This document shows positions 13,241 to 46,218 of a stretch of 64,000 nucleotides of DNA, in pieces; position 1 is the first letter of the stretch, and every line of letters starts with the position of its first letter. The DNA is taken from assembly GCA_039934355.1 (NCBI GenBank), contig JBDTMI010000010.1, positions 15,481-79,480 on the forward strand, written 5' to 3'. The translations under genes were made by a program, and so were the position numbers. The notes beneath the pieces were generated by a model. The model had not been told where the DNA came from, did no database searches, and saw only the letters and a list, made by a program, of their open reading frames with translations. Source of the stretch: Gemmatimonadales bacterium (GTDB lineage: Bacteria > Gemmatimonadota > Gemmatimonadetes > Gemmatimonadales > GWC2-71-9).

Positions 13241-13279
13241 ACCCTCAGTGCATCCCGAGTCCGGCACGACACCAGCGAC

Positions 13280-13312
13280 GACGGGCCCCGGAGCACAGCT
13301 CCGGGGCCCGTC
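13280..13312. terminator. Perfect 15-bp stem/3-nt loop hairpin between convergent genes
   Basis: The sequence is gacgggccccggagc-aca-gctccggggcccgtc. It sits between the ABC gene stop (13240, +) and the peroxidase stop (13358, -). There is no clear U-tract. Confidence 0.55.
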
Positions 13313-13357
13313 GCATTCGCCCGTCCAACGGCTACCGTCTCGCGCGCGACGCCTCCC

Positions 13358-17598: not shown

Positions 17599-18051
17599 CT
17601 ATCTCCGCGCGACGAGAGCCCGCACTTTTCGCACGACCCGCTGCTGGGCCCGGCCGTGTTTCACTGCGACGAAGATGGTGTCATCTCCCGCAATGGTACC
17701 AGCGACGTCAGGCCAGGCGAGTCGGTCGAGGGCGACCGCGACCCGATTCGCTTCTCCCGCCGATGTGTGCAGAACAATGAGCGCGTCGCCGGCAATATCC
17801 ACGGTCAGCACGCCATCGGCGATCCGGTGTTCATCGGGATGTTCGGGCGCCGCGGCAACACGGGTAGCGCGCTGGTAGGCGCCTTCGACCTTGACGAGCT
17901 TGAGACTGGTAATGTCGCGACTGACGGAGCTCTGGGTCACCGCCCACCCCTCGGCACCGAGCGCGTCGGCCAGATCTTCCTGGGTCCGAATGGGGCGGGT
18001 GCTGATCAACTCGAGAATCTTGAGCTGACGCTTCCGCCGATCCCCGCTCAT
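17599..18051 (-). CDS. argR: Arginine repressor ArgR
   Basis: RQLKILELISTRPIRTQEDLADALGAEGWAVTQSSVSRDITSLKLVK is the winged-helix domain. GTIAGDDTIFV is the arginine-binding motif. An ATGA overlap joins it to argH. Confidence 0.85.
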   Translation of the reverse strand: MSGDRRKRQLKILELISTRPIRTQEDLADALGAEGWAVTQSSVSRDITSLKLVKVEGAYQRATRVAAAPEHPDEHRIADGVLTVDIAGDALIVLHTSAGEANRVAVALDRLAWPDVAGTIAGDDTIFVAVKHGRAQQRVVRKVRALVARR

Positions 18052-19472
18052 GCGCGGGAACGCGCTCCGCCCCGACCCGCGAGCCCTTCCATCGCGGCAT
18101 CAAAGCGGCGTTGCTCCCGGCGGGCCCAGGCACGAGAGAGGCGCAGCCGCGCCCGCACCAGCGGGAGTCCGAGATTTCCCAGGCCGCCGCTGCTCTTGCG
18201 TCGGCTGATGATCTCCTCGGTGGACGGATCGCGGGACCAGTCGCCTTCCTTGATCGCTGCGGCGACTTCCCGATAGGCGGAGCGGAAGGCACTCCCTCGC
18301 TCCACCCGGCGCATCACCTCGTCGGTGGCCAGTGGACCGCCGGACAGCATCGTCCGGCCGATCGCCGGCTCCACGCCGAGGCGCGGCACGGCGACGGCCA
18401 GCATCGAGAGCATCCCCTCCAGCCGGTCGACACCCCGCATCAGCGGTTCCTTCAACAGCTGGAAGTCGCGATGATACCCGCTGGCGAGCTTGCTCTTGAT
18501 CTGCAGCACGGTGAAGAGATCTCCTTCGAGCGCAGCGGCCCGGCTGCGGGTCAGCTCGAAGAGATCGGGATTCCGCTTGTGCGGCATGATGCTCGACCCG
18601 GTCGCGAGATCGGCGGGCAGCACCAGGAACCCGCACTCGTCCGAGCTGAAATGGATGACGTCGCTCGACAGCTTGCTCAGTTCGTGGCCCAACTGGCTGC
18701 ACCAGAAGAGCACCATCGCCTCCAGCTTGCCCCGGCCGTTTTGCACCAGCGCGACATTGTGCTCAATCTCGCGGAACCCGAGGGCGCGCGCGGCTACCTC
18801 GCGCTTGATCGGCAGCGGGACACCGTACCCGGCGGCACTCCCCAGCGGCGACCGGTCCACCTTGGCCCAGAGTGCGGGCAGGCATTCGACCGTATCCAGG
18901 AGGCCTTCGGCAAAGGCGGCGGCCCAGAGGCCGGCGGACGATGGCATGGCCCGGCGGGTATGGGTATACCCGGGCCACACGACGCGCTGGTGCTTGTGGG
19001 CAAAGTTGACCAACCCCTCCACCAGATCCAACGCCTCATCCTGGAGCAGCAGCAGGCGGTTCTTGAGATAGAGCCGCAGGTCGAGCGCAATCTGGTCGTT
19101 GCGTGAGCGACCGGTATGCAGGCGCTCACCCACCGGCCCGACCTGCCGGACCAGCCAGTCCTCGACCGCGGTGTGCACATCCTCGTGCTCAGGACCCAGT
19201 CCGAGACGACCCTCATCGACCTCGCGAAGCGCCTGTCGCAGGCCGGTACGCAGCTTGAGATACTCCGCCTCCTTCAGGAGCCGGGAGGCACGCAGTCCCT
19301 CGATGTGTCCCAGGCTCCCCATGATGTCCCACGCAAGCAACCGCGCATCCCACAGCCGGTCTTCGGTGGCGGTGTAGTCCAGCATCTGTCGATCGAGCGC
19401 GTGACTGGACACCCAGAGCGTGGTTGGTGTCGCGGGCGCGGCAACTTCCCGTTTCGGCGGCTTCGGCGTCAT
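18048..19472 (-). CDS. argH: Argininosuccinate lyase
   Basis: It has the fumarate-lyase signature GSSIMPHKRNP, plus RLHTGRSRNDQ and the TH..RAMPS loop. At 474 aa it has no fused GNAT domain. Confidence 0.9.
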   Translation of the reverse strand: MTPKPPKREVAAPATPTTLWVSSHALDRQMLDYTATEDRLWDARLLAWDIMGSLGHIEGLRASRLLKEAEYLKLRTGLRQALREVDEGRLGLGPEHEDVHTAVEDWLVRQVGPVGERLHTGRSRNDQIALDLRLYLKNRLLLLQDEALDLVEGLVNFAHKHQRVVWPGYTHTRRAMPSSAGLWAAAFAEGLLDTVECLPALWAKVDRSPLGSAAGYGVPLPIKREVAARALGFREIEHNVALVQNGRGKLEAMVLFWCSQLGHELSKLSSDVIHFSSDECGFLVLPADLATGSSIMPHKRNPDLFELTRSRAAALEGDLFTVLQIKSKLASGYHRDFQLLKEPLMRGVDRLEGMLSMLAVAVPRLGVEPAIGRTMLSGGPLATDEVMRRVERGSAFRSAYREVAAAIKEGDWSRDPSTEEIISRRKSSGGLGNLGLPLVRARLRLSRAWARREQRRFDAAMEGLAGRGGARSRA

Positions 19473-20545
19473 GTGAGGTAGGCCTGCGCCAGCTGGCGGT
19501 AGAAGGTCCGCGCCTCCGACACTTCCGGAAGATCGACATACTCATCGGGTGTGTGCGAACGGCGGCTGGTCCCCGGCCCGCACTTGATGGCGTCGCGGTC
19601 ACGCAAGAATACCCAATCGGAACAGGTGGGAGAACCAAACGTCTTTGACCCGGGGCGGAGCCGCCGCGCCAGGGCAAGGAGCCGCGAATCGGCCGGTGTC
19701 TCGCACGGGACCAGGCGGTCCGACGTCACCTGGACCTCGACATCCAGCGCCGCCCCGAGCGCCTCGGCGAGCTCCGCGTGGGTCCAATTCGGTGTGCTGC
19801 GGACATCGAGCACCGCGCGCGCCACCGGCGGCGTGACATTCCGGCTCACGCCCCCCTCGAGCATCGTTGGCGTGGCGGTCGCGACGCCAAGGATCGGGTG
19901 CACCCGGTTCCGGAACAGCTCAGGCAGCTTCGCGACGTTGCGGCTCAGTTCGACGATCGCGTTGGTGAAGTCCGGATTGTCCGCCGCATATCCGGCGTGG
20001 CGCTGCAGGCCGCGGGCCACGAGATCCACCATCATCAGGCCGCGCTGCGCTATGGCGATATCGAGGTTGGTCGGCTCTCCCACGACGGCGGCGTCGATGG
20101 CGCCGAGGCGCTCGACGGCGGTGCCCATCGTCGTATTCCTGGTTTCTTCCTCGTAGCCCAGCACGACCAGCAACCGCCCGCGCGCCGGCCCGCCTGATTC
20201 GGCGAGGTCCCGCGCCGCGATGAGCATGCTCGCGACGGAGGCCTTGGCGTCACCGGAACCGCGGCCGTAGAGCCGGTCGTCCTCCAACGTCGGCTCGAAC
20301 ACCGGGCGGGTCCATCCCTCACCCGCCGGGACGGTATCGAGATGGGAGACGAAAGCGAGTGTCGGCCCGGGAGCGGTGCCAGCGACCGCGATGCTGACGG
20401 CCGCGTCGTCCCGCATCACGCTGAGGCCGGCGTGCCTGGCCCACTCTTCCACCCACCGTGCGATCGTCTCCTCGGTGCCACTCACCGAGTGCAGGGAGAC
20501 CAGGTCACGGAGGAGGACAATTTCAGGTCGCGAGGTCCACTCCAA
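19469..20545 (-). CDS. argE: M20 deacylase of the arginine cluster (ArgE-like; acetylornithine or acetylcitrulline deacetylase)
   Basis: M20 motifs SHLDTVP and GRGSGDAKAS are present. It lies between argB and argH with an ATGA overlap to argH. The TTG start overlaps the argB 3' end by 23 nt. Confidence 0.7.
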   Translation of the reverse strand: MEWTSRPEIVLLRDLVSLHSVSGTEETIARWVEEWARHAGLSVMRDDAAVSIAVAGTAPGPTLAFVSHLDTVPAGEGWTRPVFEPTLEDDRLYGRGSGDAKASVASMLIAARDLAESGGPARGRLLVVLGYEEETRNTTMGTAVERLGAIDAAVVGEPTNLDIAIAQRGLMMVDLVARGLQRHAGYAADNPDFTNAIVELSRNVAKLPELFRNRVHPILGVATATPTMLEGGVSRNVTPPVARAVLDVRSTPNWTHAELAEALGAALDVEVQVTSDRLVPCETPADSRLLALARRLRPGSKTFGSPTCSDWVFLRDRDAIKCGPGTSRRSHTPDEYVDLPEVSEARTFYRQLAQAYLT

Positions 20546-21464
20546 GATAGGTCGCCTTCTCCTTTCGCCCGACGATCATGGTGCCGAACCCCGCACCGGT
20601 GAAGACTTCCAGCAGCAATGAATCCGGTGCGCGTCCATCGATGATGTGGGTCCGCTCGACGCCGCCGGTCGCCGCCCGGATGCAGGCCTCGACCTTGGGG
20701 CGCATGCCGCCGGAGAGACTGCCGCTCTCCATGAGGCTCGCGAGATCATCCGGATCGGCGAAGGTGACGAGACTGGAGGCATCGTTCCGGTCTCGCAGCA
20801 CCCCCGGCGCCCCGGTGAGGAAGATCAGCTTCTGTGCCTTCAGGGCGACGGCCAGCGATTCCGCGACGGTGTCGGCGTTGACGTTGTAGACGTTGCCGTC
20901 GCTGTCACCCGCGAGACTCGCCACCACGGGGACGAAGCGCGCATCCAGCAGCGTGATCAGCACCCGCGGATCGGCCCGGACGATGTCGCCCACATGCCCG
21001 TAGTCCACCGTCCGGCTCACGCCGGCATCGTCCGTGACCATGACCGGCGGGCGACGCTGCGCCGTGAGCAGGTCGCCATCCACACCGGAGAGCCCCACCG
21101 CCTGGATATCATGGGCCCGAAGGGCGGACAGCAGGTTCACGTTGAGCGAGCCGGCGTAGACCATCTTGGCCACTTCAAGCGCCGCGTCGTCCGTGACCCG
21201 CCGTCCGGCCACCATCTGCGGCTCGCTGCCGAGGCGACGGGAGAGGGCGCTCGCCTGGGGCCCGCCGCCATGCACGACGACCACCCGGATGCTGAGTGAC
21301 GAGAGCAGCCCGAGCTGGCCGGCCACACGATGGAGCGCCTCAGCGTCGGCGAGGACGTCGCCGCCGAGCTTGACGACGAAGGTGTGATCCCGATAGGCCC
21401 GCACGTAGCGGAGGGCGCCCTTGAGGCCGGCGATGCCTTTGGTGGTGTCGATGGTCATGAACAC
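20523..21464 (-). CDS. argB: Acetylglutamate kinase
   Basis: FVVKLGGDVL, VVVHGGGPQ and NVNADT are AAK-family ArgB motifs. The start is GTG 21464 or ATG 21458. Confidence 0.9.
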   Translation of the reverse strand: MFMTIDTTKGIAGLKGALRYVRAYRDHTFVVKLGGDVLADAEALHRVAGQLGLLSSLSIRVVVVHGGGPQASALSRRLGSEPQMVAGRRVTDDAALEVAKMVYAGSLNVNLLSALRAHDIQAVGLSGVDGDLLTAQRRPPVMVTDDAGVSRTVDYGHVGDIVRADPRVLITLLDARFVPVVASLAGDSDGNVYNVNADTVAESLAVALKAQKLIFLTGAPGVLRDRNDASSLVTFADPDDLASLMESGSLSGGMRPKVEACIRAATGGVERTHIIDGRAPDSLLLEVFTGAGFGTMIVGRKEKATYLGVDLAT

Positions 21465-21484: not shown

Positions 21485-21528
21485 GCCGACAGCCATCAGC
21501 CGTCAGCCGTCAGCCGTCAGCCGTCAGC
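21485..21528. repeat. 7-bp tandem array: six units of GCCGTCA (+ strand), equal to TGACGGC on the sense strand
   Basis: The units are gccgaca gccatca gccgtca x4 gc. It fills the argF'-argB spacer, abuts the argF' stop codon and ends 20 nt before the argB start. Confidence 0.9.
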
Positions 21529-22544
21529 TACTTCACGCTCAGCAGTTCCAGAAGCAATGCCCGCTGCACGTGCAGCCGGTTCTCCGCTTCATCCACGATG
21601 ACCGACGACGGGCCGTCAAGCACCGCATCGTCGATCTCCACATTGCGCCGCACCGGCAGGCAATGCATCACTGCCGCCTTGCCTCCGCGCGTCGAGCGGA
21701 GGCGCTGCGCCGTGAGGCGCCAGTCGCGCAGGTCGGCGCGCCCGGCCGCTTCCGCCACCGGGTCTCCGAAGTGCTTGAGCGAGCCCCACGACTTCACGTA
21801 GACGACGTCGGCCCCCACCACCGCTTCGTCCGGGTCCGGAATGATGTGCACGAACTCGCCACCCTGCGCCTGCGCGATCTTGCGGATGAGCGCCGTATCC
21901 TCGGGATCGAGTTCGTACCCTTCCGGTCGCGCGATCACGACCTCCATTCCAAGATGCGCCGCGGCCAGCGCCGCACTGGCGGGCACCGCAGTCGGCAGGG
22001 CCTTGGGATGCCAGGCCCACATCAGCACGAATCGCTTCCCCTGTGGCTGGCCGAGCTTCTCCCTCATGGTCAGCGCATCGGCGAGCTGCTGGCAGGGATG
22101 CCGGCGCACCGACTCCATGTTGATCACCGGCTTTTCACAATAGCTGGCGAAGTCGCGCACCACGCGATCCTCTCGAGCCTCGGCCCAGCTCCCGCCGCGG
22201 GGAAACGAGCGGATGCCGACGACGTCGGCATAGCGTCCCAGCACCTGCGCCGCATCCCGGATATGCTCGACCGTTGTTCCGTCCATCACGGCCCCCGGCT
22301 TGGTCTCGAGGGTCCAGCTGCTGCGTCCCGGCTCCAGCACGATTCCGTGGCCCCCATGGAGAAACATGGCGGTCTCGAAGCTGGTCCGGGTGCGCATGCT
22401 CGGATCCAGGAATACCATCGCCATGACCTTGCGCTCGAGGCCGCCGAGGACCTCGCCGCGCTTGATCTTCGCCGCGAGCAGCAGCAGGGCATCGATGTCG
22501 GCGGAGGTCCAGTCCTCGACGGTGATGAAGTCCCGTTTGGTCAT
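21528..22544 (-). CDS. argF: N-acyl-L-ornithine carbamoyltransferase (AOTCase/SOTCase type, argF')
   Basis: It has SMRTRTSFE in place of the OTCase STRTR, HPCQ and HCLP motifs. The N-terminal FITVEDW...AAKIK pattern is typical of acetyl/succinyl-ornithine transcarbamylases. Confidence 0.8.
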   Translation of the reverse strand: MTKRDFITVEDWTSADIDALLLLAAKIKRGEVLGGLERKVMAMVFLDPSMRTRTSFETAMFLHGGHGIVLEPGRSSWTLETKPGAVMDGTTVEHIRDAAQVLGRYADVVGIRSFPRGGSWAEAREDRVVRDFASYCEKPVINMESVRRHPCQQLADALTMREKLGQPQGKRFVLMWAWHPKALPTAVPASAALAAAHLGMEVVIARPEGYELDPEDTALIRKIAQAQGGEFVHIIPDPDEAVVGADVVYVKSWGSLKHFGDPVAEAAGRADLRDWRLTAQRLRSTRGGKAAVMHCLPVRRNVEIDDAVLDGPSSVIVDEAENRLHVQRALLLELLSVK

Positions 22545-23704
22545 GCCAGCACCTCCGCGAGTGCCGCGAGCAGGAGATCGGCCTCCTGGCGCGAAAAGGT
22601 CAGCGGCGGCAGCAGGCGCAGGATCGCCGGGTCCGCCGCCGTGCCGGTGAGGATACGATGCCCGAACAGCGCCCGCTGCACCTCGGCCGCGGGCCGCGCG
22701 AGACGGAGGCCCAGGAGCAGACCTCGGCCCTGCACGTCGATCACCTTCGCCGGGCCGAGCTGCCGCGCGCCGGTGGTGAGGTACGATCCGACGTCACGCA
22801 CATTCGCCAGCAGTCCTTCATCCTCGAGGACATCCAGTGTGGCGAGCGCCGCCGCGCAGGGCACCGGGCCACCGCCGAATGTGCTGCCGAGATCTCCGGT
22901 CGTGATGGTGGCGGTGACCGCGTCGGAGGCGACGACCGCGCCGATCGGCATGCCGGACGCCAGTCCCTTCGCGAAGGTGATGATGTCCGGGACGACGCCG
23001 AAGGTTTCCGCCGCGGTGAAGTGCCCGGTCCGCCCCACGCCGCACTGCACCTCATCGTAGATCAGCACGACGCCGTGCTCGGTGCAGAGCTCCCGGATGC
23101 GGCGCAGAAAGGCCGGATCACACTCCCGGGCACCGGCCATTCCCTGCACCGGCTCAAGAATCACGGCGGCGACCGCGGGATTGATGGCGCGCTCCAGTCC
23201 CTCGAGGCGGTTGAACGGGACCTTGTGACTCAGCGGCATCCCAGCCCGCAACGCGCCCTCCTCATATTTGGCGCCATCTGTCACCGCGAGACAGGCGACG
23301 GTACGACCGTGCCAGCCGCCCTGCAGCGAGACCATCGGCTTGCGCCCGGTATGCTTGCGGGCGAGATGCATGGCGTTCTCGTTCGCTTCCGCGCCGGAAT
23401 TGCAGAAGAAGGCGCGCGACAGCGGCGCGGGACACTGGTCGACGAGGCGCACCGCCAGTCGCTCACGATTGGGGTGCGGCACCGCGGTCGAGTAGAACAG
23501 CAGCCTCGCTGCCTGCTCGGCGACGGCCCGGACGACGGCCGGGTGCGAATGTCCGGTGGAGGAGACGGCGTGTCCTCCGTAGGCGTCCAACCATCGCTCT
23601 CCGGCATCATCAACCAGCCAGGACCCCCGGCCCGAGACCGGCCGCACCGGGAACTGGGCATATACCGGCAGCAATGCGGAGGCTTGCGCAGCGATCTCAG
23701 GCAT
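22541..23704 (-). CDS. argD: Acetylornithine aminotransferase (class-III PLP)
   Basis: It has GGHAVSSTGHSHP, a DEVQCGVGRTG-type motif and TFAKGLASG with the PLP lysine. I prefer the ATG at 23704 (MPEIAAQ), which has a GGAG RBS. Confidence 0.85.
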   Translation of the reverse strand: MPEIAAQASALLPVYAQFPVRPVSGRGSWLVDDAGERWLDAYGGHAVSSTGHSHPAVVRAVAEQAARLLFYSTAVPHPNRERLAVRLVDQCPAPLSRAFFCNSGAEANENAMHLARKHTGRKPMVSLQGGWHGRTVACLAVTDGAKYEEGALRAGMPLSHKVPFNRLEGLERAINPAVAAVILEPVQGMAGARECDPAFLRRIRELCTEHGVVLIYDEVQCGVGRTGHFTAAETFGVVPDIITFAKGLASGMPIGAVVASDAVTATITTGDLGSTFGGGPVPCAAALATLDVLEDEGLLANVRDVGSYLTTGARQLGPAKVIDVQGRGLLLGLRLARPAAEVQRALFGHRILTGTAADPAILRLLPPLTFSRQEADLLLAALAEVLA

Positions 23705-23722
23705 CCGTCGCACTCCAAAGAA

Positions 23723-23764
23723 GCCTTCAGCGTTCAGCATTCAGCCGTCAGCCGTCAGCCGTTA
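23723..23764. repeat. 7-bp tandem array, about six degenerate units of GCCGTCA
   Basis: The units are gccttca gcgttca gcattca gccgtca gccgtca gccgtta. It ends 18 nt upstream of the argD start. Confidence 0.85.
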
Positions 23765-23770
23765 ATTCAG

Positions 23771-23879
23771 GCTGTCATCCTGAGGGAGCGCAGCGACCGA
23801 AGGATCTCTTGGACCCGGAGCCAGACTCAGGGATCGGCTCCGAGACAAAGAGATCCTTCGCTGCGCTCAGGATGACAGC
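23771..23879. repeat. Palindromic intergenic element (GCTGTCATCCTGAG...CGAAGGATCTC and its inverse), REP/MITE-like
   Basis: The left arm is 23771-23808 and the right arm is 23850-23879, the reverse complement of the left arm with an 8-nt indel. A nested stem cggagcc/ggctccg sits in the loop. A second copy lies at 45998-46157. Confidence 0.85.
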
Positions 23880-23966: not shown

Positions 23967-25007
23967 TCAGACCGGAAAGATCCCCCCAAACCCCAGTCCC
24001 GCTGTCTCCGGCAATCCCAGCGCAAGGTTCATCGCCTGGACCGCCTGCCCCCCGGCGCCCTTCACCAGGTTGTCGATGACCACCATCACCTGGGCTTCCC
24101 GCCCGTCAGTGGACTGCGCCACATGGATCAGGGCGTAGTTGGTGCCGACGACGTGCGTGAGCTCGGGGGGCTGATCGACGATCCGCACAAAGGGGCGGTT
24201 CTCATACGCCTTCCGAAAACTGCTGCCGAGGTCGGGGTGGATCGCGGCAGGAAGCCCAAGCTCGACGTGCATCGTCAGGTGAATGCCGCGCACGAATGGA
24301 CCGGAGTGCGTCATCAGTCGCGCGCGTGCGTCCCGTCGGCCGGTCCAGCCGCGCCAGCGCTGCAGGATCTCCGCCTCGTGCCGGTGGCCCAGCACGGAGT
24401 AGGCAAAGAAGTTATTCGCCCGCGCGGGATGGTGCGTCGTCGGCTTGGGGTGCACGCCGCTGCCACTCGAACCGGTGACGGCGAACAGGACCGGTATGAC
24501 ATTGAGGTCGGCCTGCGACAGCGGCCACAGGGCGAGTTGCGCCGCCGTCGCGAAGCAGCCCGGCACGGCGAGCGCCGTCCTGCCAAGCAGACTGGTGCCC
24601 AGCACATCGGCCAGCGCATACGTGAACTGCGGTACCACCTCCGGCGACGGATGGGCACCGTAATACCGACTGTACAGCTCGAGATCGCTGATCCGGAAGT
24701 CGGCCGCAAGATCGAGCACCAGCCGGGGACTGGCCGCCAGGACTTCGCCCGCCACCTTGCCTGACTCGCCATGCTCCAGCGCAAGGAATACCACATCCGC
24801 CTCCTGGGCCGCCTCCGCTGGCGTGGCCCCGGAAAACCGTACATCGGTGAGCAGCGCGAGCGCCGGATGGACCTCGCCGATCGGCACACCCGCCTTGCTC
24901 CGACTGGTCGCCACCAGTCCCGAGACTTCGGGATGCAGGAGCAGGAGGCGGAGCAGCTCGCCACCGGCGTAGCCGGCCGCGCCAATGACGGCGACGCGCA
25001 GAGTCAT
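23967..25007 (-). CDS. argC: N-acetyl-gamma-glutamyl-phosphate reductase
   Basis: MTLRVAVIGAAGYAGGELLRLL is at the N-terminus. The active-site region is VPGCFATA. The ORF-track extension to 25145 was trimmed to the ATG at 25007. Confidence 0.9.
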   Translation of the reverse strand: MTLRVAVIGAAGYAGGELLRLLLLHPEVSGLVATSRSKAGVPIGEVHPALALLTDVRFSGATPAEAAQEADVVFLALEHGESGKVAGEVLAASPRLVLDLAADFRISDLELYSRYYGAHPSPEVVPQFTYALADVLGTSLLGRTALAVPGCFATAAQLALWPLSQADLNVIPVLFAVTGSSGSGVHPKPTTHHPARANNFFAYSVLGHRHEAEILQRWRGWTGRRDARARLMTHSGPFVRGIHLTMHVELGLPAAIHPDLGSSFRKAYENRPFVRIVDQPPELTHVVGTNYALIHVAQSTDGREAQVMVVIDNLVKGAGGQAVQAMNLALGLPETAGLGFGGIFPV

Positions 25008-25041: not shown

Positions 25042-26139
25042 TCAGCGCGCCGCCGCGACGAGCTGACGACTGTCGGCCGCGGCGACATGCTGGTCCAGGG
25101 CGGCCCGCACAACGGCGACCAGGCCATCGGCATCACGGAGTGCATTGTGGGAGGCGAGACCCAGTTCCTTCCGGATGTAGTCGCGACCGACCTCGTTGTC
25201 GGTGGCGGGACCGGTGAGCACCGTGACCGGCAACTGGAACAGGTCCCGCATCAGCGTGACCGCGCCCCAGCACCCGACCGGATCGGGTGCCGCCATGACA
25301 TAGGCCGCCCCCACCCCGGTCAATTCCACATCCTTGAGGATATCCTGGACGCCATACTCGCCCAGAATGCCGTCGCCCAGCTCCGCGAGAATCACGTCCG
25401 GCCTGGACGCGGCCAGCCGGTTGAAGATGCCCTTGGCGGCCGTGACGGTCAGGCCGGGGCGCGTCGTGGCGATGCCGATGTCATTGAACGTCAGCGCGGC
25501 CACGGCACCGGCATCGAGCATGGAGAGGGCATCACGCATGAGCGATACACCGGTCAGCTTGGACGCCGCGACGCGCAGCCCCGAGCGGGTCAGTCCCCGC
25601 ACGAGTTCCGTCGCCGCGACCGTCTTGCCGGCGTTCATGCAGGTCCCCGCCACATAGACTACCGGAATCTGCTGCTCCAGGCGCTCGGCCACCGGCACGG
25701 CCTGATCGCGGATGTGGGCCGGTCGGCCGACGCGGTCACCCAGCTCGGGAAAGGCGAGGATGGCGCCGAGCACTTCGGCCGCGAACGGCGCACCGTTTTC
25801 TGGTGTCGCCGATGTGCACTTGCCAAGAATGCCGCCGAGGTTCAGCACCTCGATGGTGTCGCCGACGCTGATGGCACTTGGCACCACGCCCGCATAGCCC
25901 CGGAGGGCGCGGCGGTGACCGAGGGTGCCGGCGAGCACATCACCCGCGCGGAGCGCGACCATGCGCCCGGTGCGGTCCTCGACGGTATTGTAGCTCAACT
26001 TGTCATGCAGGATGCGCACGGCGAGCACAAAGCCTTCGGCGGCGATGATCTCGTCGCCCACAATGACTTCACTGGGCAGTTGCGCATTCCGGGTGCTCGA
26101 GGAGATGCGATCGAGACGGATGCGGGTGGTCTTGACCAT
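25042..26139 (-). CDS. Uncharacterised protein with GTxxxxGKT P-loop (DTBS/CobQ/Pta-N/DUF1611-like), embedded in the arg operon
   Basis: 365-aa ORF on the operon strand, with a GGGAGG RBS 6 nt before the ATG. Motifs are VYVAGTCMNAGKTVAATELV and AELGDGILGEYG. The N-terminal ~150 aa show no motif I recognise. Confidence 0.75.
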   Translation of the reverse strand: MVKTTRIRLDRISSSTRNAQLPSEVIVGDEIIAAEGFVLAVRILHDKLSYNTVEDRTGRMVALRAGDVLAGTLGHRRALRGYAGVVPSAISVGDTIEVLNLGGILGKCTSATPENGAPFAAEVLGAILAFPELGDRVGRPAHIRDQAVPVAERLEQQIPVVYVAGTCMNAGKTVAATELVRGLTRSGLRVAASKLTGVSLMRDALSMLDAGAVAALTFNDIGIATTRPGLTVTAAKGIFNRLAASRPDVILAELGDGILGEYGVQDILKDVELTGVGAAYVMAAPDPVGCWGAVTLMRDLFQLPVTVLTGPATDNEVGRDYIRKELGLASHNALRDADGLVAVVRAALDQHVAAADSRQLVAAAR

Positions 26140-26173
26140 GACACCTCCCCTGACTCAAGTTGGGAAGTGCGGG

Positions 26174-26217
26174 GTCAGGAGTGAGGAGGAAAAACGCTTT
26201 TCCTCCTCACTCCTGAC
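26174..26217. other. Perfect 20-bp stem / 4-nt loop hairpin in the argG-to-unknown-gene spacer
   Basis: The sequence is gtcaggagtgaggaggaaaa-acgc-ttttcctcctcactcctgac. No U-tract follows it on the operon (minus) strand. Confidence 0.85.
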
Positions 26218-26227
26218 TCCTCACTCT

Positions 26228-27415
26228 CTACGGCTTTCCGCCAGCAACTTTGTTCGCCAGCAGCTCCGGCACCGCCGATACCCGGCTGAATGCCCGCGCC
26301 TCTGCCCCGCTCCACAGCCGATTTTCCTCGCCGTACGTGGCGACACTGCGATCCATCATTGAAAACGGGCTGCGGGTGCCGACCACATGGAAACGACCGG
26401 AGGCCAGCAGAATTCTGGTCTCACCGCTCACCCGCTGCTGGCTGCTGGTCAACAGCGCCTCGATGTCCCGCAGGGCCGGATCGAAGTAATGCCCCTCGTG
26501 CAGCCGGTCGCCGTAAAACGTGGCGAGCTGGTCCTTCCAAAAAGCCTGCCACTTGGTCAGCACCAGCTTCTCCAACTCGCGATGCGCCGCAATCAGCATC
26601 AGCGCCGCTCCCGCCTCGAACCCGATCCGGCCCTTGATGCCGAGCGCCGTTTCTCCGACGTGAATGCCCCGACCAATGCCATATTGCTCGGCACGGTCAC
26701 CCAAAAGGCGGATGAGTTCGGGGCCCTGCGCGACGGCGCCGTCGAGCTGAACCGGCACACCTTGTTCCCATCCGATCACGAGCTCTTTCGGGGCCGGTGC
26801 GTCCGTCGGCGGATGCAGCAGCTCCGCGGGCGGTCCGGCCCAGGTGTCGTGGGTCCAGCCTCCACCCCACGTGGTGCCCCACAGGCCGCGATTAATGGAA
26901 TAGGCGCCAGCCTTGGGCGGGACCGGCAACGAGCGCTGTTCCAGATAGGTGATGGCCCACTCGCGCTGAATACCTTCGTCCCGGATGGGCGTGATCACCT
27001 CGAGTTCCGGTGCGAGCACCCGAAAGGCGATATCGAACCGCACCTGGTCGTTGCCCGCGCCGGTAGAGCCATGGGCGACGGCCGTCGCCCCGATCTGCCG
27101 CGCCACGTCGATGACGGACAGGGCCTGCTGGGTGCGCTCCGCCGCAACCGAGAGGGGATACACCTGCCCGCGCAGCACGTTGCCGTGGATGAGGAAGCGG
27201 ACGAAGCGATCGAACACCGCCTGACGCGCATCGACGGTGTGGTGCTGGGCCGACCCGACCGCCGCCGCCTGCCGGGCGATCAGCTCGAGCTCGGCGGGTG
27301 TAGACCCGCCGGTATTCACGTAGACGGTGTGGACGGTCCAGCCCCGCTCGGCGAGAAAAGGCACGCACAGGGAGGTATCGAGTCCGCCGGAGAAGGCGAG
27401 GGCGAGAGTCGGCAT
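26228..27415 (-). CDS. argG: Argininosuccinate synthase
   Basis: ALAFSGGLDTS is the PP-loop. GSTGAGNDQVRF is the signature. Confidence 0.9.
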   Translation of the reverse strand: MPTLALAFSGGLDTSLCVPFLAERGWTVHTVYVNTGGSTPAELELIARQAAAVGSAQHHTVDARQAVFDRFVRFLIHGNVLRGQVYPLSVAAERTQQALSVIDVARQIGATAVAHGSTGAGNDQVRFDIAFRVLAPELEVITPIRDEGIQREWAITYLEQRSLPVPPKAGAYSINRGLWGTTWGGGWTHDTWAGPPAELLHPPTDAPAPKELVIGWEQGVPVQLDGAVAQGPELIRLLGDRAEQYGIGRGIHVGETALGIKGRIGFEAGAALMLIAAHRELEKLVLTKWQAFWKDQLATFYGDRLHEGHYFDPALRDIEALLTSSQQRVSGETRILLASGRFHVVGTRSPFSMMDRSVATYGEENRLWSGAEARAFSRVSAVPELLANKVAGGKP

Positions 27416-27433
27416 AAGTCATAAATATGCAAT
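27416..27433 (-). promoter_or_regulatory. Candidate ARG box (ArgR operator) abutting the argG start codon
   Basis: The sense strand ATTGCATATTTATGACTT matches about 14/18 positions of WNTGAATWWWWATTCANW. It is the only AT-rich patch in the argG upstream region. Confidence 0.3.
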
Positions 27434-27570
27434 ATGCGTCTCGAGGCGCAAGGTCGAATCGGTGTTGCCCCATCCAGTCACATCCGATAGACTCTTGCCC
27501 TCCTGCGGGACAGGCCGTTCCGCCGGGAAACCGACACCCTGTGCGGCCGGCGGCCGCCGGCCGGGAGCGC

Positions 27571-31464: not shown

Positions 31465-33756
31465 TTACTCGACCACGATCTCCACCTCGGCTCGCTGCGG
31501 TCCAGCAACGGCACGGACCCGGTGATTCCCCGGCACAAGCGGCCAGCGTGTGGCTGACGTCGGTCGGTCGTCAATGTACCAGTGCACGGTCTGGCCTGCG
31601 GCGCCTCCGGCGGCCCGGAGCGCGATCGTCGCGTAGCGTGCGGCGACACCCGGAGGAATCAGGTACCGGTCACCGTCGACGGGCGAGACAATCGTCAGGC
31701 GCGGTGCGCCGAGCGAGGGGTCCGAGTGGGACAACGCGACGGAGGCAGAGTCATACCGTCGCGGCCGGATGCTGCGTGCAGTCGCCTGTGCGAGGCTCGC
31801 AAGCCCGTCACTGCTGGCGGCCCAGTCGGCAAATTCCACGGGCAGGTGCAGCTCGCCCCCGGTATGCCAGTGACAGCGGGCCGAGGGTTCGGTCCCGGGA
31901 ACGAAATATTCGGTCACACCGGGGCACTCACCGGTGGCGCGCATTCCGGAGACCCGACAGACCGTGACCGGCACCAGCCCGAGATCCGCGGGTCGAGCAA
32001 GGTCCCCGGGCGGATAGCGGTTGGCCGTCAGCAGCACCGCGCGGTGCAGCAGCGGTCCGGCGCCGGTGATGCCGCTGACACCTTCCATGGGCTGGCCGGA
32101 GAAATTCCCTACCCAGACTGCGACGGTGAAGTTGGCGGTGGTGGCCGCCGCCCAGTTGTCGGTGAAATGACGACTCGTGCCAGTCTTGGCCGCGGCCCGA
32201 AAGGGCCAGTCGAAGGGCGTGCTGATGCCGAATCCGGGCACCCGGGCGACGGGATCGGCGAGCACATCCAGCACCAGCGCGGCAGCGCGTGGTGATACGA
32301 CACGGCGGGTCGCGGCGGCGCCCGGTTCATCCGTCAGCGACTGGGTCATGCTCCATTCGCCGCCGTGCGCCAGGGCACGATAGCCATTCGCCAGCTCGAG
32401 CAGCGTCACATCGCCATTGCCGAGCGCGAGGCCCAGCCCGTAGAACTCCGGTGGTCGCGAGAGCGACGCAAAGCCCGCCTGCAGCAGCCCATGGAGCAGC
32501 GAGGCGTAGCCGATGCGATCGGCCAGCTCGACCGCGGGCACATTGTAGCTGCTGGCCAGCGCCTCACGAGCCCGCACCGGACCATGAAATTCCCGATCAT
32601 AGTTGCGCGGATGATAGGGCCCACCGGCCGTCTGATAGGTCTTCGCAACATCGGCAAGCACCGTCGCCGCCGTGATGCCGCGATCGAAGCCCATGGCATA
32701 CAGAAATGGCTTGAGCGCGGAGCCGGGCTGGCGCGCGCTGATGACCATGTCCACCTGCCCAGCAGTGTCGGCCCAGAAATCGGGCGAGCCGACCCAGGCC
32801 AGAATCTCTCCCGAGTGGTTGTCGAGGACCACGACCGCCGCCTGCCGCCCGCCGCGAGTCGCAAGCTGGGCGACCGTCTGCCGGACCTCACTTTCCAGCT
32901 CGGTCTGCAGAGCGAGATCCAGCGTGGTGCGCCAGCTCCCGCTGAGCCGACGACCGCCCTGCTCCGCTTCCTGAAGCAGGTGACTGGTGAAGTGGGGCGC
33001 AAGGAAGGGCCGACCTGCACCGGCCGAGACGACCGGTTCGAGACTGGCCCGCACCACCTCGTCCTCGCTGGCGTAGCCCTGGGCCTGAAGCGCCGCGAGC
33101 CCGACCAGCCGCCGCACACGGGCCGTTGCCGGATCCACCAGCGGATTCTGACTCGAGGGTGCGCGGGCCAGGGCGGCAAGCATCGCCGCCTGGCCGAGGC
33201 TGGCCTGTCCAGCCGACGCGCCGAAGTAGAGCCGCATCGCCGGCGCGACGCCGACGGCGCCCTGTCCCAGCGGGACCCGGTTGAGATACTGCTCGAGGAT
33301 GACGGACTTGGAGAGATGGGCGTCGAGCCGAAGCGCCCAAAGCGATTGGACCAGCTTGTCACTCCAGCCCCGTCCCATGGGGCGAAGCAGTCGGGCGAGC
33401 TGCATCGTGATCGTCGACGCGCCGGAGACGACTCGGCGGGCGCTGAGGTTGTCCCGCGCGGCGCGCGCCACCGCGCGCAGATCGATGCCGTGATGCTGGT
33501 AGAATCGACGGTCCTCCACCGCGACAAAGGCGCGGGGAAGATCGGGATCGAGTGCCGCGAGTGGCACCCATTGGGTCAGGCTGCCATCCCCGGCGCGGGT
33601 ACTTCGAAGCAACACTCCATGGCGGTCGGTGAGCGCCAGACTCTCGGTACGCGCTGGAGCGAGTAGAGCGTCGGGTAACGGCCACCCGATCCAGGCCGCT
33701 GCCATTGCCGCGAGCGTTGCCGCGGTGATCACGAGCCGGCGAAGGAATCGTTTCAT
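31465..33756 (-). CDS. pbpC: Penicillin-binding protein 1C (bifunctional GT51 transglycosylase / transpeptidase)
   Basis: The GT51 motif is EDRRFYQHHGID. The transpeptidase motifs are SALKPF, SYN and KTGTS. It has the C-terminal PBP1C-type domain and starts 9 nt downstream of the A2M gene. Confidence 0.85.
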   Translation of the reverse strand: MKRFLRRLVITAATLAAMAAAWIGWPLPDALLAPARTESLALTDRHGVLLRSTRAGDGSLTQWVPLAALDPDLPRAFVAVEDRRFYQHHGIDLRAVARAARDNLSARRVVSGASTITMQLARLLRPMGRGWSDKLVQSLWALRLDAHLSKSVILEQYLNRVPLGQGAVGVAPAMRLYFGASAGQASLGQAAMLAALARAPSSQNPLVDPATARVRRLVGLAALQAQGYASEDEVVRASLEPVVSAGAGRPFLAPHFTSHLLQEAEQGGRRLSGSWRTTLDLALQTELESEVRQTVAQLATRGGRQAAVVVLDNHSGEILAWVGSPDFWADTAGQVDMVISARQPGSALKPFLYAMGFDRGITAATVLADVAKTYQTAGGPYHPRNYDREFHGPVRAREALASSYNVPAVELADRIGYASLLHGLLQAGFASLSRPPEFYGLGLALGNGDVTLLELANGYRALAHGGEWSMTQSLTDEPGAAATRRVVSPRAAALVLDVLADPVARVPGFGISTPFDWPFRAAAKTGTSRHFTDNWAAATTANFTVAVWVGNFSGQPMEGVSGITGAGPLLHRAVLLTANRYPPGDLARPADLGLVPVTVCRVSGMRATGECPGVTEYFVPGTEPSARCHWHTGGELHLPVEFADWAASSDGLASLAQATARSIRPRRYDSASVALSHSDPSLGAPRLTIVSPVDGDRYLIPPGVAARYATIALRAAGGAAGQTVHWYIDDRPTSATRWPLVPGNHRVRAVAGPQRAEVEIVVE

Positions 33757-33765
33757 GGCTGCCAG

Positions 33766-36700
33766 CTACTTCCCCTCCACTGTGAACACCCCGCCATCAC
33801 TCCGTCCGTACACCGCCGGGTTGTACATCTCCTCCGCATGCGCGGGCGGGCGCACAAACACGCCCGGTGTCGTCGCGCGGGCGATGTAGGTCATCGTGTA
33901 TGTCCCCTGCCAGAGCACCGTGGCCGAGTAGACCACGCGATCGTCCCGGATCTCCTTGTGATCGAACGGTGTCCACCAGCCGCTGTCCCAGCGGCCATAG
34001 AACCAGCGATCGTCGCTCCCACTCGGCTCCTCCGACTCCCCCTCCGCCTGCTCCGGCGTGAGGAAATTCTGCACCTGATCGCGGCCCGGCCCGGGAACGA
34101 GGCTCGCGGTACGCAGGCTCAGGTCCACCGCTTCGAGGCCAGCGGGCAGCGCATCGTCGATCACCACGAATTCCCGGTCCGCCGGCACCGTCACCCGAAG
34201 GCGCACCCGAACCAGCTGGCCTTCCACGACGCTCACGATTGGCGAGTCCTTGTCGTACCGCTCATACCAGCGCTCGAGACGAATACCCTGGTCTTCGGGA
34301 TTGACCGGCCGCTGCTTCGGTACCTCGTTCACCGTGAGGTAGTAGTAGATCGGGCCGCCGGTGCCGTCAGCCGCCAGCGAGAGCCGCAACGCCGCCTGCC
34401 CGTCGCCCGACTTGGCCAGCAATCCGGTAAGCGGGACACTCGAATCCCGCACCGTCAGGCGCGCGGTGAGGGCCGGGGTCCCCATCATGGTGAACAGCGT
34501 CCGTCCTCCACTCTGCACCGTGAAGCTCCGGGCCGCGCCGGCGCGCATCCGCCGGTCGAAACTGGTGAGTGCGGTCACCGCCGCGGCGTAGTCCTGCGTG
34601 TTCCACGGCGAGAGGACGCCAGCCCGGCCCTGCTGCACCAGGGTTTCCACCAGCGGACCGATCAGCGGATTCGCGGAATCCACCGCGAGCGTGGCGCTGA
34701 GGAGGCGCGCGACCGGCCGCACCCGTGACTCGAAGTAGTGGGTCCGGCGCAACGCCACCTCCGGCACCGTCGCCCGCCGACCCTCCACCTTGACCGACTT
34801 CCATGCCGGCTGCAGCAGCGTCCGCGCCGAGCGGAACGCCTTCCGCCGTGCCAGCACTTCGGCCAGCCGCACCCGGTCTTCCCACGCGAGCTGCGCCGCG
34901 TTGCGCAGCAGCTCGTTTTCCGCCGCGATCTCCGGCTTGCCATAGCGGCTGAGGAAATCGGCGGCGGCAACCTGATCCGCCAGTCGGCCTTCCACGCTTT
35001 CGTACCAGCTCGCCACCGGGGCGCGGACCGGCGCCGGATCCTTGAGCTGGGTCCGCAGGTAGTTGGCCAGATGCGCCAGCACGGAATCATTCACCACGAT
35101 GCCGGCGGCTTTTGCCTCCAGCAGCGCCTGGCCGGCGAAGGCCGACAGCCAGGGGGTGGTCCAGTCCTGACTGTCCCAGTAGCCGATACCACCATCCGGC
35201 CGCTGCCGGCGGGTCAACAGCCCAACCGCCGTCTCGATCTCCCGCTTCGGGTTGCCGGGCAGCAGCGTCACACCTTTGAGGCTTTTCTGCGCCTGATAGA
35301 GCGCGAGGATCGGCAACACCGCACTCGACGCCTGCTCCGTGCAGTAGTACGGATAGACTCTCAGCTGCCAGGTCAGCCCCTTGATGAAGCTCAGCGGCGA
35401 GCTGCCCGAGGTGAGCACCAGTCGCGAACGCTCCGGATCGAGTCCCTCCGGCAGCAGCATCTCCGCGGTCGCCGTGTCGGTGAGCACACCGGAGACGGTC
35501 CACGCGCGTGGCCGGAAGGCCGGCTTGATCGCGAGCCGCGACTGCACCGCGTCGGCGTCACCCGCGCCGCTGACGCGAAAGCGGAAGGTGGCGCTGTCAG
35601 CCTGTCCGAGCGGACCGCTGCCCGGCTGACGGAAGTCGAACCGCACCTCGCGACCACGACCCGCTTCGAGGGTCGCCTTTTGTGATGCGGTACTGGTCAG
35701 GTCCGTGCCGGTCGCTTCGGCCCGCACCTGCACCTCGGGTGTGCCGCCCGCACGCTGGTTGACCACGACACCGGCGCGGAAGGTGTCACCCTCACGCAGG
35801 AAGCGCGGCAGCGCGGGCCGCGCCACGAGCGGTCGCGTCACCAGCATCGGCGACTGACCCTTGCCGTAGCGGTCATTCGCCGTCACCGCCACAGCCATGA
35901 TACGGAAGGTCGTGAGATTGTCAGGCAACTTTGCCCGGGCGGTCGCCACGCCGCTGGAATCGGTGACTACGCTGCCGAGGAAGAAGGCGGTCGTCTTGAA
36001 GCGGGAGCGAAGGATGTCGCTCTCACCGGTGCCGCCACCGCCGCCGGGGGCGCGTCCCCCTTTCTCCCCCTCCGGCACCTGCGGCGCCACCGTCGTCAGG
36101 TTGCTGGCGAGCCGGAGGCCCAGTCCGCGCGGGGCGTAGAGCAGATCGATCGGATCGGGCGTCTGATAGCCGGTGAGGGCCAGCACGCCTTCGTCCACCG
36201 CCCACAACGTGACCTCACCGCGCTGGGCCCGGCCGGCCACATCCGTGAGCGAGACCCGGACAGTCGCCGTATCCCCGGGGCGGTACTCCCGGAGCAGCGG
36301 ATTCACCGTCACCGTAAGTCGCTTCACCTCCGGCGTCACGCGCAGCTCGGTGTACCCTACGCGGATGGTCGGGCGACCGGGATCGTCGAGGGCGCCGGGA
36401 GGCGCGCTGCGTCCCCGCGTCACCATCACCGACACAAAGACATTGGGCGCCCACGATTCCTTCACCGGAAACTTGAGCGTCGCGGAACCGGAGGTCACCT
36501 TCATCCGGCGCTGTTCGATCAATCCCTCGCGTTCGACGGTGATCCATGCCTCGGCATCGGTGAACGGGGACGCGACCAGCACCGTCGCGGTGTCGCCCAC
36601 GCTGTAGCGGCTGCGGTCCGGAATGAGATCCATCTTGAACTGGCTCTCGTCGTTCCACGGCACCCAGTCGCTCCCCGTTGCCCAGCGACTCAGACTGGTG

Positions 36701-39528: not shown

Positions 39529-39748
39529 GGGGTACCACTCCTGAAGGGGACTGACCGGGCAGAAGATGACTGCGGCGAGAGCGGCGGTCAATCACCGAGG
39601 GAGCGGCGGTGGGGCGGTCGCGGTGTGGAGGAGAGAGTGGGCGATGGAAGGAATCCGGAGGGGTGCCCGGCGTCACCTCTCGGTGATGCCGGACGGGTCA
39701 GAGTTCACGACAATCCTGTCCGCGACCCCCGAGCCAGCGACAGCAGTG

Positions 39749-46192: not shown

Positions 46193-46218
46193 CCGATATC
46201 CCCTACACGATGCCCCCC

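Follow-up and report, generated by a model that had tools for sequence, protein, structure and literature searches.

The closest described relative of the system considered here comes from Steroidobacter, where GapMind 2026 predicted that the hypothetical protein ACG33_RS14135 (UniProt A0A127FCT3) is an alternative N-succinylglutamate synthase, an assignment that is a prediction only (bioRxiv 10.1101/2024.10.14.618325). According to the same preprint, members of its family are found 'virtually always' in arg operons and never together with ArgA homologues, the ArgF' encoded beside them carries Ala, Pro, Ser, or Val at position 92, and the protein remotely resembles DgcN, with 7XRJ as its top PDB match (bioRxiv 10.1101/2024.10.14.618325). 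DgcN, the DUF1611 protein of PDB entry 7XRJ, is an acetyl-CoA:D-glutamate N-acetyltransferase according to Yu et al. 2023, as cited in that preprint; a preliminary description of the DNA studied here had named DgcN as a DUF1611 glutamate N-acetyltransferase, in agreement with this citation. In Bacteroidetes, the N-succinylglutamate synthase ArgA2 (the GNAT protein BT3761) adjoins argG in a succinyl-type operon (PMC9026213). Whole phyla that abound in soil and sediment, among them Gemmatimonadota and many Acidobacteriota, Myxococcota, and Elusimicrobiota, have no assigned first enzyme for arginine synthesis, and as a consequence genome-based auxotrophy predictions call such organisms arginine-deficient.

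We analysed a stretch of 64,000 nucleotides from a Gemmatimonadales bacterium (contig JBDTMI010000010.1; hereafter the window), which contains an operon with the gene order argG-X-argC-argD-argF'-argB-argE-argH-argR. We regard gene X, with moderate confidence, as a predicted candidate for an N-succinyl-L-glutamate synthase, that is, an alternative ArgA. The features of the operon, in the direction of transcription, are:

27418..27452, minus strand: putative promoter and ArgR operator 5' of argG, CTTGCGC followed by GCATATTGCATATTTATGA
26228..27415, minus strand: argG (argininosuccinate synthase), gene 1 of the operon; Pfam and NCBIfam
26144..26150, minus strand: ribosome-binding site GGGGAGG of X, 4 nt upstream of the ATG; read from the sequence
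25042..26139, minus strand: gene X, 365 aa, ATG start; open reading frame and translation
23967..25007, minus strand: argC; TIGR01850 at 319 bits, above the cut-off, start codon read from the sequence
22541..23740, minus strand: argD (N-acylornithine aminotransferase); Pfam and NCBIfam
21528..22544, minus strand: argF' (N-acylornithine carbamoyltransferase), with Val at position 92; NF003384 at 406 bits
20523..21464, minus strand: argB (N-acylglutamate kinase), 313 aa; TIGR00761 at 221 bits
19469..20545, minus strand: argE-like M20 deacylase, predicted N-acylcitrulline hydrolase; Pfam and NCBIfam
18048..19472, minus strand: argH (argininosuccinate lyase); Pfam and NCBIfam
17599..18051, minus strand: argR (arginine repressor), last gene of the operon; Arg_repressor and Arg_repressor_C domains

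The 365-aa reading frame between argG and argC and its ribosome-binding site are thus where the preliminary description had placed them. X is a real gene, with more than 2,300 homologues, and its GC3 of 0.82 is similar to that of the adjoining genes. The operon is likely to be co-regulated, judging from the operator-like palindrome kept 5' of argG and the presence of argR within the operon itself: of the 46 related loci listed, most have CTTGCGC followed by the motif TGCATAnnTATGCA at the same position, and argR follows argH in 17 related loci as well. A strong hairpin between argG and X was considered as an attenuator and rejected, since most relatives have a spacer of less than 25 nt or overlapping genes at this point.

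By Pfam and NCBIfam, the operon covers steps 2-8 of arginine synthesis together with ArgR. The preliminary description had stated that neither ArgA nor ArgJ is encoded in it, and this was borne out: no ArgA, ArgJ, or NAGS-type GNAT was detected by Pfam and NCBIfam either within the operon or in a set of 43 further genes predicted in the window, which does not include the large ORF 33766-39591. The sole GNAT among the scanned genes (46177-46752) was rejected as a hidden ArgA, as it is of the ArsN1b/phosphinothricin-acetyltransferase type. The ArgB of the window consists of the AA_kinase domain alone, without a fused acetyltransferase domain (Pfam), and neither X nor any of 61 homologues matched a GNAT (Acetyltransf_*) or ArgJ domain in Pfam or NCBIfam. 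Across 88 related loci we found no additional conserved gene that would fill the first-step gap, and no GNAT or ArgJ-like gene family recurred within their flanks of +/-10 kb. One locus, L093, has a 157-aa GNAT directly upstream of argG-X-argC that resembles short NAGS (NF005840, E 2e-19) and the NAGS domain of ArgH(A) (NF008964, E 3.6e-11). X and an ArgA-like protein can therefore coexist.

To characterize the architecture of X, we combined an AlphaFold model (pLDDT 97, two domains), Foldseek and HMM searches, and an alignment of 61 diverse homologues with identities down to 27%. The following parts of the protein can be located on the DNA:

25735..26139, minus strand: N-terminal all-beta domain, residues ~1-135; secondary structure of the model, strands across residues 4-129
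25045..25677, minus strand: C-terminal SIMIBI-class P-loop domain, residues ~155-365; Foldseek and weak HMM matches
25621..25647, minus strand: Walker A, G165-T-C-M-N-A-G-K172-T173 (GT-x4-GKT); aligns with the BioD P-loop
25558..25560, minus strand: Lys194 of the motif K-L-T-G, invariant in the 61 homologues
25369..25383, minus strand: Walker-B-like E253-L-G-D-G, where a beta strand ends (residues 249-257 of the model)

The model strands bear out the N-terminal beta-rich domain (~150 aa) that the preliminary description had noticed, and the two motifs it had singled out, the GT-x4-GKT P-loop and a later acidic and glycine-rich segment, correspond to VYVAGTCMNAGKTVAATELVRGL (residues 161-183) and AELGDGILGEYG (residues 252-263), respectively. 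With its Walker A motif, Walker-B acidic residue, and alpha/beta fold, the modelled C-terminal domain is a SIMIBI-class P-loop NTPase fold. Foldseek gave 145 PDB matches at E<=1e-3, led by BioD, FtsY/Ffh, MeaB, and HypB, which concern this domain; BioD was the best (3of5, E 3e-6), and the DUF1611 structure 2obn ranked 41st (E 7.7e-5). HMM matches of this domain to DUF1611_C, CbiA, MobB, and BioD were weak, so that the kinship with BioD, CobQ, MobB, and DUF1611 proposed at the outset stands at a weak HMM level only. PDB sequence searches with X, with a profile of the 61 sequences, or with a profile of 31 PF07755-positive members returned P-loop-level matches or none. The N-terminal domain had no Pfam match and, searched alone with Foldseek against the PDB, no significant match (best E 0.2, LexA C-domain-like). 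Assignment of X to a well-characterised unrelated function had been named beforehand as grounds for abandoning the proposal; profile and fold searches assigned none.

Both domains have positions conserved across the 61 homologues. G171, K172, and E253 are invariant, as is Lys194, and T173 and G255 are at least 90% conserved. In a profile alignment with M. tuberculosis BioD (3fgn_A), Lys194 is matched to the Lys in the 'CKP' motif of that enzyme, a residue that we take to be BioD Lys37, and the E253-L-G-D-G motif is presumably analogous to the E-G-A-G-G motif of BioD. Conserved positions of the N-terminal domain are S14, E54, G74, R76, P87, G103, and G106, and we propose that this domain binds the acceptor, glutamate, or acts as a cap.

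The X family is unannotated and large (more than 2,300 matches, falling into 1,378 clusters at 50% identity with E<=1e-3 and 814 clusters at E<=1e-10). Of the related loci gathered with a 5-sequence X alignment, 80/80 have X as the gene immediately 5' of argC; they come from Gemmatimonadota, Myxococcota, Acidobacteriota, and Planctomycetota. Linkage persists among more distant homologues (29-44% identity), for which five of the six contexts probed were arg clusters. Of five homologues with 29-36% identity, four occur in rearranged clusters (argH-X; carAB-argG-argF-X-argC-argB; argG-X-argH-argE; argG-X-argF), and a homologue with 43-44% identity, from a MAG labelled Woesearchaeota, is arg-linked as well. 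The exception is an archaeal subfamily (32% identity) that has no arg cluster around it; its neighbours are an AstE/AspA-like deacylase and a RimK-family glutamate ligase. The linkage of homologues to arg genes, which the preliminary description had set as a test of its proposal, thus held across phyla and across rearrangements of gene order. In addition, X occurs fused to ArgB in a protein of 673 aa that is identical on four independent contigs from four samples; its X part is 38% identical (E 1e-50) and is joined to a kinase of the ArgB type (E 3e-39; TIGR00761, E 8e-37). This fusion mirrors the pairing of kinase and synthase in classical and bifunctional ArgA, and together with the X-argC adjacency it points to the start of the pathway. 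A putative X-ArgC fusion (P0250, 687 aa) was discarded as an artefact of a frameshift or of gene calling; it contains long stretches that are out of frame and of low complexity.

The neighbours of X bear on which acyl group the pathway carries. The best PDB match of the window ArgF' is the E92V mutant 3l06, aligned at V92 of the query, and Val at this position predicts N-succinylornithine as the substrate. Over 69 loci, position 92 is Val in 63, Ile in two, Pro in two, and Ala in one, with one poorly aligned OTCase, and is never Glu; in L093 it is Thr. In another locus, L083, the deacylase is of the AstE family (succinylglutamate desuccinylase) and is fused to ArgH, and the cluster has no M20 ArgE. 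Residue 92 of ArgF' and the AstE-type deacylases of some clusters point to N-succinyl rather than N-acetyl intermediates.

Taken together, these data moderately favour a model in which X is a non-orthologous replacement of ArgA that N-acylates L-glutamate, most probably to N-succinyl-L-glutamate. X would carry out the first committed step of arginine synthesis, the N-acylation of L-glutamate, and ArgB, ArgC, ArgD, the succinylornithine-type ArgF', ArgE, ArgG, and ArgH of the same operon would carry the product on to arginine. Within X, the P-loop domain would hold the nucleotide-diphosphate part of succinyl-CoA via K172/T173, K194, and E253, and the all-beta N-terminal domain (R76, E54, S14) would close over the site and position glutamate. 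This acyl-CoA mechanism is proposed by analogy with DgcN. What the analysis observed is the gene, its fold and conservation, its place in the operon, the fusion with ArgB, and the succinyl-type signatures of the neighbours; the activity, the acyl donor, and the roles of the residues are inferred. Candidate acyl donors are succinyl-CoA or ATP plus succinate, and the NTP-type set of K172/T173, E253, and K194 is no less suited to ATP chemistry than to CoA binding.

The second of these donors defines a different enzyme. X could be an ATP-dependent amide ligase that phosphorylates the succinate released by ArgE, whereupon the alpha-amino group of glutamate attacks the acyl-phosphate to give N-succinylglutamate, ADP, and Pi; we consider this possible, but distinctly less likely than acyl transfer from CoA. 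The phosphoryl-transfer set G171/K172/T173, K194, and E253 is invariant or nearly so in the 61 homologues, the profile alignment with M. tuberculosis BioD matches both GT-x4-GKT and the Lys of K-L/P-x-TG, BioD (E 3e-6) beats DUF1611 (E 7.7e-5) as a fold match, and no transferase model reaches as many family members as the bioD, cobB/cobQ, and mobB models do. The BioD-like clade (BioD, CobB/CobQ, CTP synthase, PurA) has ATP-dependent C-N bond formation as a shared trait. Yet the sequence similarity to BioD spans only ~50 residues, we know of no ligase of the BioD-like P-loop fold that acylates an amino acid, and the sole characterised relative acting on glutamate, the DUF1611 protein DgcN, reportedly uses acetyl-CoA, as the preprint cites it. 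It is similarly doubtful that X founds a new enzyme type, in which a BioD-like P-loop ATPase with a previously unseen beta domain works through a succinyl-phosphate intermediate. If the ligase did exist, succinate released by the deacylase would be recycled without CoA, and arginine synthesis would start without an acyl-CoA transferase in Gemmatimonadota, many Acidobacteriota, Myxococcota, Elusimicrobiota, and others.

Alternatively, X might not be the synthase but an accessory or regulatory NTPase of the pathway, for example a metallochaperone for ArgE or a protein that regulates ArgB/ArgC or helps to assemble them, with the first-step enzyme encoded elsewhere. Many SIMIBI/G3E proteins, UreG and MobB included, are accessory; MeaB, HypB, and the SRP GTPases are among the fold matches of X, and of the NCBIfam models, mobB has the largest number of matches in the family (39/61). 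The fusion with ArgB would fit a regulatory domain equally well, a NAGS-like GNAT adjoins the operon in L093, and the search for ArgA and ArgJ covered the window and related loci rather than whole genomes. What makes this role unlikely is that X is kept in the L083 cluster, which has no M20 ArgE, and that its second domain, large and highly conserved, has the conserved Arg, Glu, and Ser that a substrate site typically shows. The only invariant residues are G171, K172, K194, and E253, with no conserved Cys/His metal-binding motif among the 61 homologues, and on this ground a metallochaperone was rejected as the main reading. Moreover, the family described in the preprint never occurs alongside ArgA homologues, and Steroidobacter, which has no recognisable ArgA, grows in minimal medium (bioRxiv 10.1101/2024.10.14.618325). 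Still less probable, to the point of being improbable, is another reaction near arginine or N-acyl-amino-acid metabolism, such as acylation of a different intermediate, salvage, or transacylation. The breadth of the family (814 clusters at E<=1e-10) and the 32%-identical archaeal homologue, which sits outside arg clusters beside an AstE/AspA-like deacylase and a RimK-family ligase, would be consistent with such a role; against it, the operon genes account for all other pathway steps, and both the X-ArgB fusion and the X-argC adjacency indicate the pathway start.

The reading of X as the first enzyme, a non-GNAT N-acyl-glutamate synthase as suggested in the preliminary description, is therefore supported by arg linkage, the ArgB fusion, and succinyl-type neighbours. 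It is not new, as the same role was already predicted in the GapMind 2026 preprint; this locus adds corroboration through the fusions of X with ArgB and of AstE with ArgH, synteny that is conserved throughout, and a residue-level model. If X is the first enzyme, a family of well over 1,000 clusters, all annotated 'hypothetical', would gain a function, enzymology would gain an N-acyltransferase or ligase that combines a P-loop scaffold and a new beta domain, and the N-succinyl route to arginine would extend far wider than Bacteroidetes.

How does X compare with the systems described so far? X and ACG33_RS14135 look like members of the same family, likened here by their properties rather than by sequence alignment: both are hypothetical proteins of arg clusters with a remote resemblance to DUF1611/DgcN, and both accompany an ArgF' with a residue other than Glu at position 92 (A/P/S/V/I/T). 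They differ in that Steroidobacter lacks ArgE, whereas the window operon has an M20 ArgE, and in that the top PDB match of ACG33_RS14135 is 7XRJ, whereas X finds BioD and SRP GTPases before DUF1611 (2obn, rank 41).

With DUF1611/DgcN (PF07755), X shares the C-terminal P-loop domain with GT-x4-GKT, and glutamate as the presumed acceptor. The match of X to PF07755 (20.8 bits, E 2.8e-4) is under the gathering score of 25 and covers residues 155-213 only; PF07755 is matched by 16/61 diverse homologues at E<=0.01, and many X-family members carry a precomputed PF07755 match. The JCSG structure 2OBN (DUF1611) is likewise a weak fold match (E 7.7e-5). The N-terminal domain of X is all-beta and has no PDB match, unlike that of DUF1611, which is presumably Rossmann-like. 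By Pfam score and N-terminal domain, X would fall outside DUF1611, with remote homology to it. Since X is under the DUF1611 threshold and has no DUF1611-type N-terminal domain, the DgcN analogy is one of the P-loop domain alone, and the NCBIfam families listed for X and for its homologues include no acetyltransferase model. The proposed reaction also differs from that of DgcN in using L- rather than D-glutamate, succinyl rather than acetyl groups, and in serving biosynthesis rather than catabolism.

X resembles the BioD clade (with CobB/CobQ and the Pta N-terminal domain) in GT-x4-GKT, in the Lys after strand 2, and in the acidic residue ending the Walker-B strand, but differs from BioD in its extra 150-aa beta domain and in its arginine rather than biotin context; it scores 13.5 bits against TIGR00347 (BioD), with a cut-off of 83.3, and the PDB profile match is confined to profile positions 145-193. 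Finally, the known first-step enzymes (ArgA with AAK and GNAT domains, ArgA/B, S-NAGS, ArgH(A), ArgJ, and ArgA2) occupy the pathway position proposed for X. Unlike the classical enzymes, X has neither a GNAT nor an ArgJ domain and its fold is unrelated to theirs, yet the joining of kinase and synthase in ArgA and ArgA/B has its parallel in the X-ArgB fusion.

The 365-aa protein X is encoded by a genuine gene (25042-26139, minus strand). The ORF begins with ATG, carries GGGGAGG 4 nt upstream of the start, and has a GC3 of 0.82, equal to that of neighbouring genes. Residues 161-183 and 252-263 hold the two motifs quoted in the preliminary description. The flanking minus-strand genes were identified with Pfam and NCBIfam:

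26228-27415, minus strand, argG (Pfam/NCBIfam)
23967-25007, minus strand, argC (Pfam/NCBIfam)
22541-23740, minus strand, argD (Pfam/NCBIfam)
21528-22544, minus strand, argF', N-acylornithine carbamoyltransferase (NF003384, 406 bits, above cut-off)
20523-21464, minus strand, argB (313 aa, kinase domain only)
19469-20545, minus strand, argE, M20 type (Pfam/NCBIfam)
18048-19472, minus strand, argH (Pfam/NCBIfam)
17599-18051, minus strand, argR (Pfam/NCBIfam)

The earlier observation that this operon lacks ArgA and ArgJ was borne out: no ArgA, ArgJ or NAGS-type GNAT was found by Pfam/NCBIfam in the operon or among 43 other window genes, a scan that left aside a 1,941-aa ORF (33766-39591). The sole GNAT among the scanned genes (46177-46752) is ArsN1b/phosphinothricin-acetyltransferase-like. 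Directly downstream of the 1,941-aa ORF lies a gene for a PBP1C-type penicillin-binding protein (Transgly, Transpeptidase, BiPBP_C; the pair spans 31465-39591, minus strand), an arrangement that we take to resemble bacterial alpha-2-macroglobulin/PbpC operons.

Upstream of argG is an operator-like palindrome, TGCATAnnTATGCA (27418-27452, minus strand), preceded by CTTGCGC and often found in tandem as TGCATATTTATGCAtTATGCA; together these are probably an ArgR box plus promoter. The palindrome occupies the same position in related loci L001-L051. In the majority of the 46 that are listed it touches the start codon of argG or runs into it, which suggests that argG transcripts are very short or leaderless. 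The argG-X spacer contains a near-perfect 20-bp stem-loop (26166-26225; dG -54 kcal/mol, z -7.3), and the ribosome-binding site of X is predicted to pair within a second stem. Because the spacer is under 25 nt, or the genes overlap, in most relatives, the stem-loop is not conserved and looks like a lineage-specific insertion. Two stretches carry copies of a REP/MITE-like inverted element (GTCATCCTGAG...CTCAGGATGAC): 23774-23876, within the 226-nt argC-argD spacer, and 46001-46088, upstream of the gene for the GNAT.

X belongs to no curated family, and profile and fold searches, including Foldseek on an AlphaFold model, assigned it to none. Pfam gives X a single match, over residues 155-213, to the C-terminal P-loop domain of DUF1611; at 20.8 bits it falls short of the cut-off of 25, and an NCBIfam scan gave no meaningful match. 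One search returned more than 2,300 homologues, every one named 'hypothetical', and when the scan was made exhaustive, 1,378 clusters (50% identity) reached E<=1e-3. The named members are spread over Gemmatimonadota, Acidobacteriota, Myxococcota, Planctomycetota, Elusimicrobiota, Chloroflexota, Eisenbacteria and Pseudomonadota, and also include two MAGs labelled archaea. Across 61 full-length homologues (27-55% identity), G171, K172, K194 and E253 are invariant, and conservation reaches 90% or more at S14, E54, G74, R76, P87, T173, D203, D220, T226 and D286.

The AlphaFold model, of very high confidence (pLDDT 97.1, pTM 0.93), combines an alpha/beta P-loop domain (160-365) with an all-beta N-terminal domain (strands over residues 4-129), the region already described as beta-rich. 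Foldseek matches in the PDB are confined to the C-domain: BioD (E 3e-6), FtsY/Ffh, MeaB and HypB, with the DUF1611 structure 2obn at rank 41 (E 7.7e-5). The N-domain modelled alone (pLDDT 96) retrieved nothing significant from the PDB (best E 0.2). In a PDB-sequence profile search, the GT-x4-GKT motif aligns with the P-loop of M. tuberculosis BioD, placing K194 opposite the 'CKP' lysine that follows it. The proposed P-loop kinship holds as far as weak matches of family members to mobB, bioD, cobB/cobQ, CbiA and DUF1611 models, the DUF1611 match of X itself staying below the Pfam threshold. Judged from the Foldseek, profile and HMM matches, X is a SIMIBI-class P-loop protein near BioD/DUF1611, with a new N-terminal domain.

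A locus scan with one genome per species confirmed 588 loci, and in all of the best 80 (55-93% identity) X lies immediately upstream of argC. The commonest order among these is argG-X-argC-argD-argF'-argB-argE-argH; in Myxococcota it is X-argC-(argD)-argB-argE...argG-argH. The only other gene family recurring inside these operons is argR, and no GNAT/ArgJ-like family recurs at related loci. Some 780 nt are inserted between argD and argF' in L029 (~13270-14055) and L034 (~13305-14084), with no convincing ORF in either. At 29-36% identity, homologues are still arg-linked, in changed orders:

L081: argH-X
L083: carA-carB-argG-argF-X-argC-argB-[AstE/AspA deacylase fused to ArgH]-argD
L085: argG-X-argH-argE-...-argF-carAB
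L088: argG-X-argF

The exception is an archaeal homologue (32% identity; L095:7984-10923, also L096) in a ribosomal-protein neighbourhood without arg genes. Its neighbours are a gene for an AstE/AspA-like deacylase and, in convergent orientation, one for a RimK-family ATP-grasp glutamate ligase; it may act in a different N-acyl-amino-acid pathway.

A fusion of X to an ArgB-type kinase, P0219, points to step 1. Its X part is 38% identical to X (E 1e-50), and its kinase part matches the window ArgB (E 3e-39) and TIGR00761 (E 8e-37). The 673-aa ORF (L089:7860-9881) is solitary, outside any arg operon, with an arginase-family gene divergent upstream. An assembly artefact was ruled out, since the identical protein occurs on four contigs from four samples (L089-L092). 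Classical ArgA and bifunctional ArgA/B are kinase-synthase fusions too. The pathway neighbours of ArgB are the first-step synthase and ArgC; as ArgC is accounted for, the fusion would place X at step 1.

The acyl group is indicated by ArgF'. According to Shi et al. 2007, cited by the preprint bioRxiv 10.1101/2024.10.14.618325, the enzyme becomes specific for N-succinylornithine when Glu92 is replaced with A, P, S or V. The window ArgF' has Val at this position, and its best match is 3l06, a Xanthomonas N-acetylornithine carbamoyltransferase that carries the E92V mutation. Over 69 loci, one of them (L085) a poorly aligned classical OTCase, residue 92 is V in 63, I in 2, P in 2, A in 1 and never Glu; in L093 it is Thr. 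By the published mutant data, V92 predicts N-succinylornithine specificity, so the label that NF003384 would give, N-acetylornithine carbamoyltransferase, is probably wrong about substrate. The X-containing cluster of L083 has no M20 ArgE and in its place a 735-aa fusion of an AstE/AspA-family (succinylglutamate desuccinylase-like) deacylase to argininosuccinate lyase (L083:10869-13076), plausibly an N-succinylcitrulline desuccinylase. Residue 92 and this AstE-type domain both indicate succinylated intermediates.

Strong comparative evidence favours the earlier proposal of X as a first-step candidate, with catalysis itself predicted, and its homologues proved arg-linked elsewhere. X is probably the enzyme that makes N-succinyl-L-glutamate, the first step of arginine synthesis: succinyl-CoA would bind the P-loop domain, by analogy with the DUF1611 enzyme DgcN, and the new beta domain would provide the glutamate site. 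A caveat is L093, a MAG labelled Woesearchaeota, where a 157-aa GNAT (7193-7666), like short NAGS and the ArgH(A) NAGS domain, directly precedes a full operon (argG-X-argC-argD-argF'-argB-argE-argH), the only such pairing among 96 loci. The main rival would keep the pathway role and make X a succinate-glutamate ligase using BioD-type ATP chemistry; the full conservation of the Walker A Lys/Thr, BioD-like Lys and Walker-B Glu makes it a serious alternative, if a distinctly less probable one. Still less likely is an accessory or regulatory NTPase role for X, which is kept where M20 ArgE is absent and has no conserved metal motif. Least likely, and by our estimate improbable, is that X catalyses some other, as yet unrecognised step in the metabolism of arginine or of N-acyl amino acids.

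The first-step hypothesis for proteins of this kind is already published as a prediction and is not new. The GapMind-2026 preprint (bioRxiv 10.1101/2024.10.14.618325) concerns the hypothetical Steroidobacter denitrificans protein ACG33_RS14135 (UniProt A0A127FCT3), whose homologues it describes as 'virtually always' within arg operons and never alongside ArgA homologues; it reports weak Foldseek resemblance to DgcN (PDB 7XRJ) and, for 90% of the adjoining ArgF' proteins, A, P, S or V as residue 92. X agrees with that family in every property tested and therefore very probably belongs to it, as judged from described properties rather than sequence alignment. For Bacteroidetes, PMC9026213 attributes this step to an unrelated GNAT, ArgA2/BT3761.
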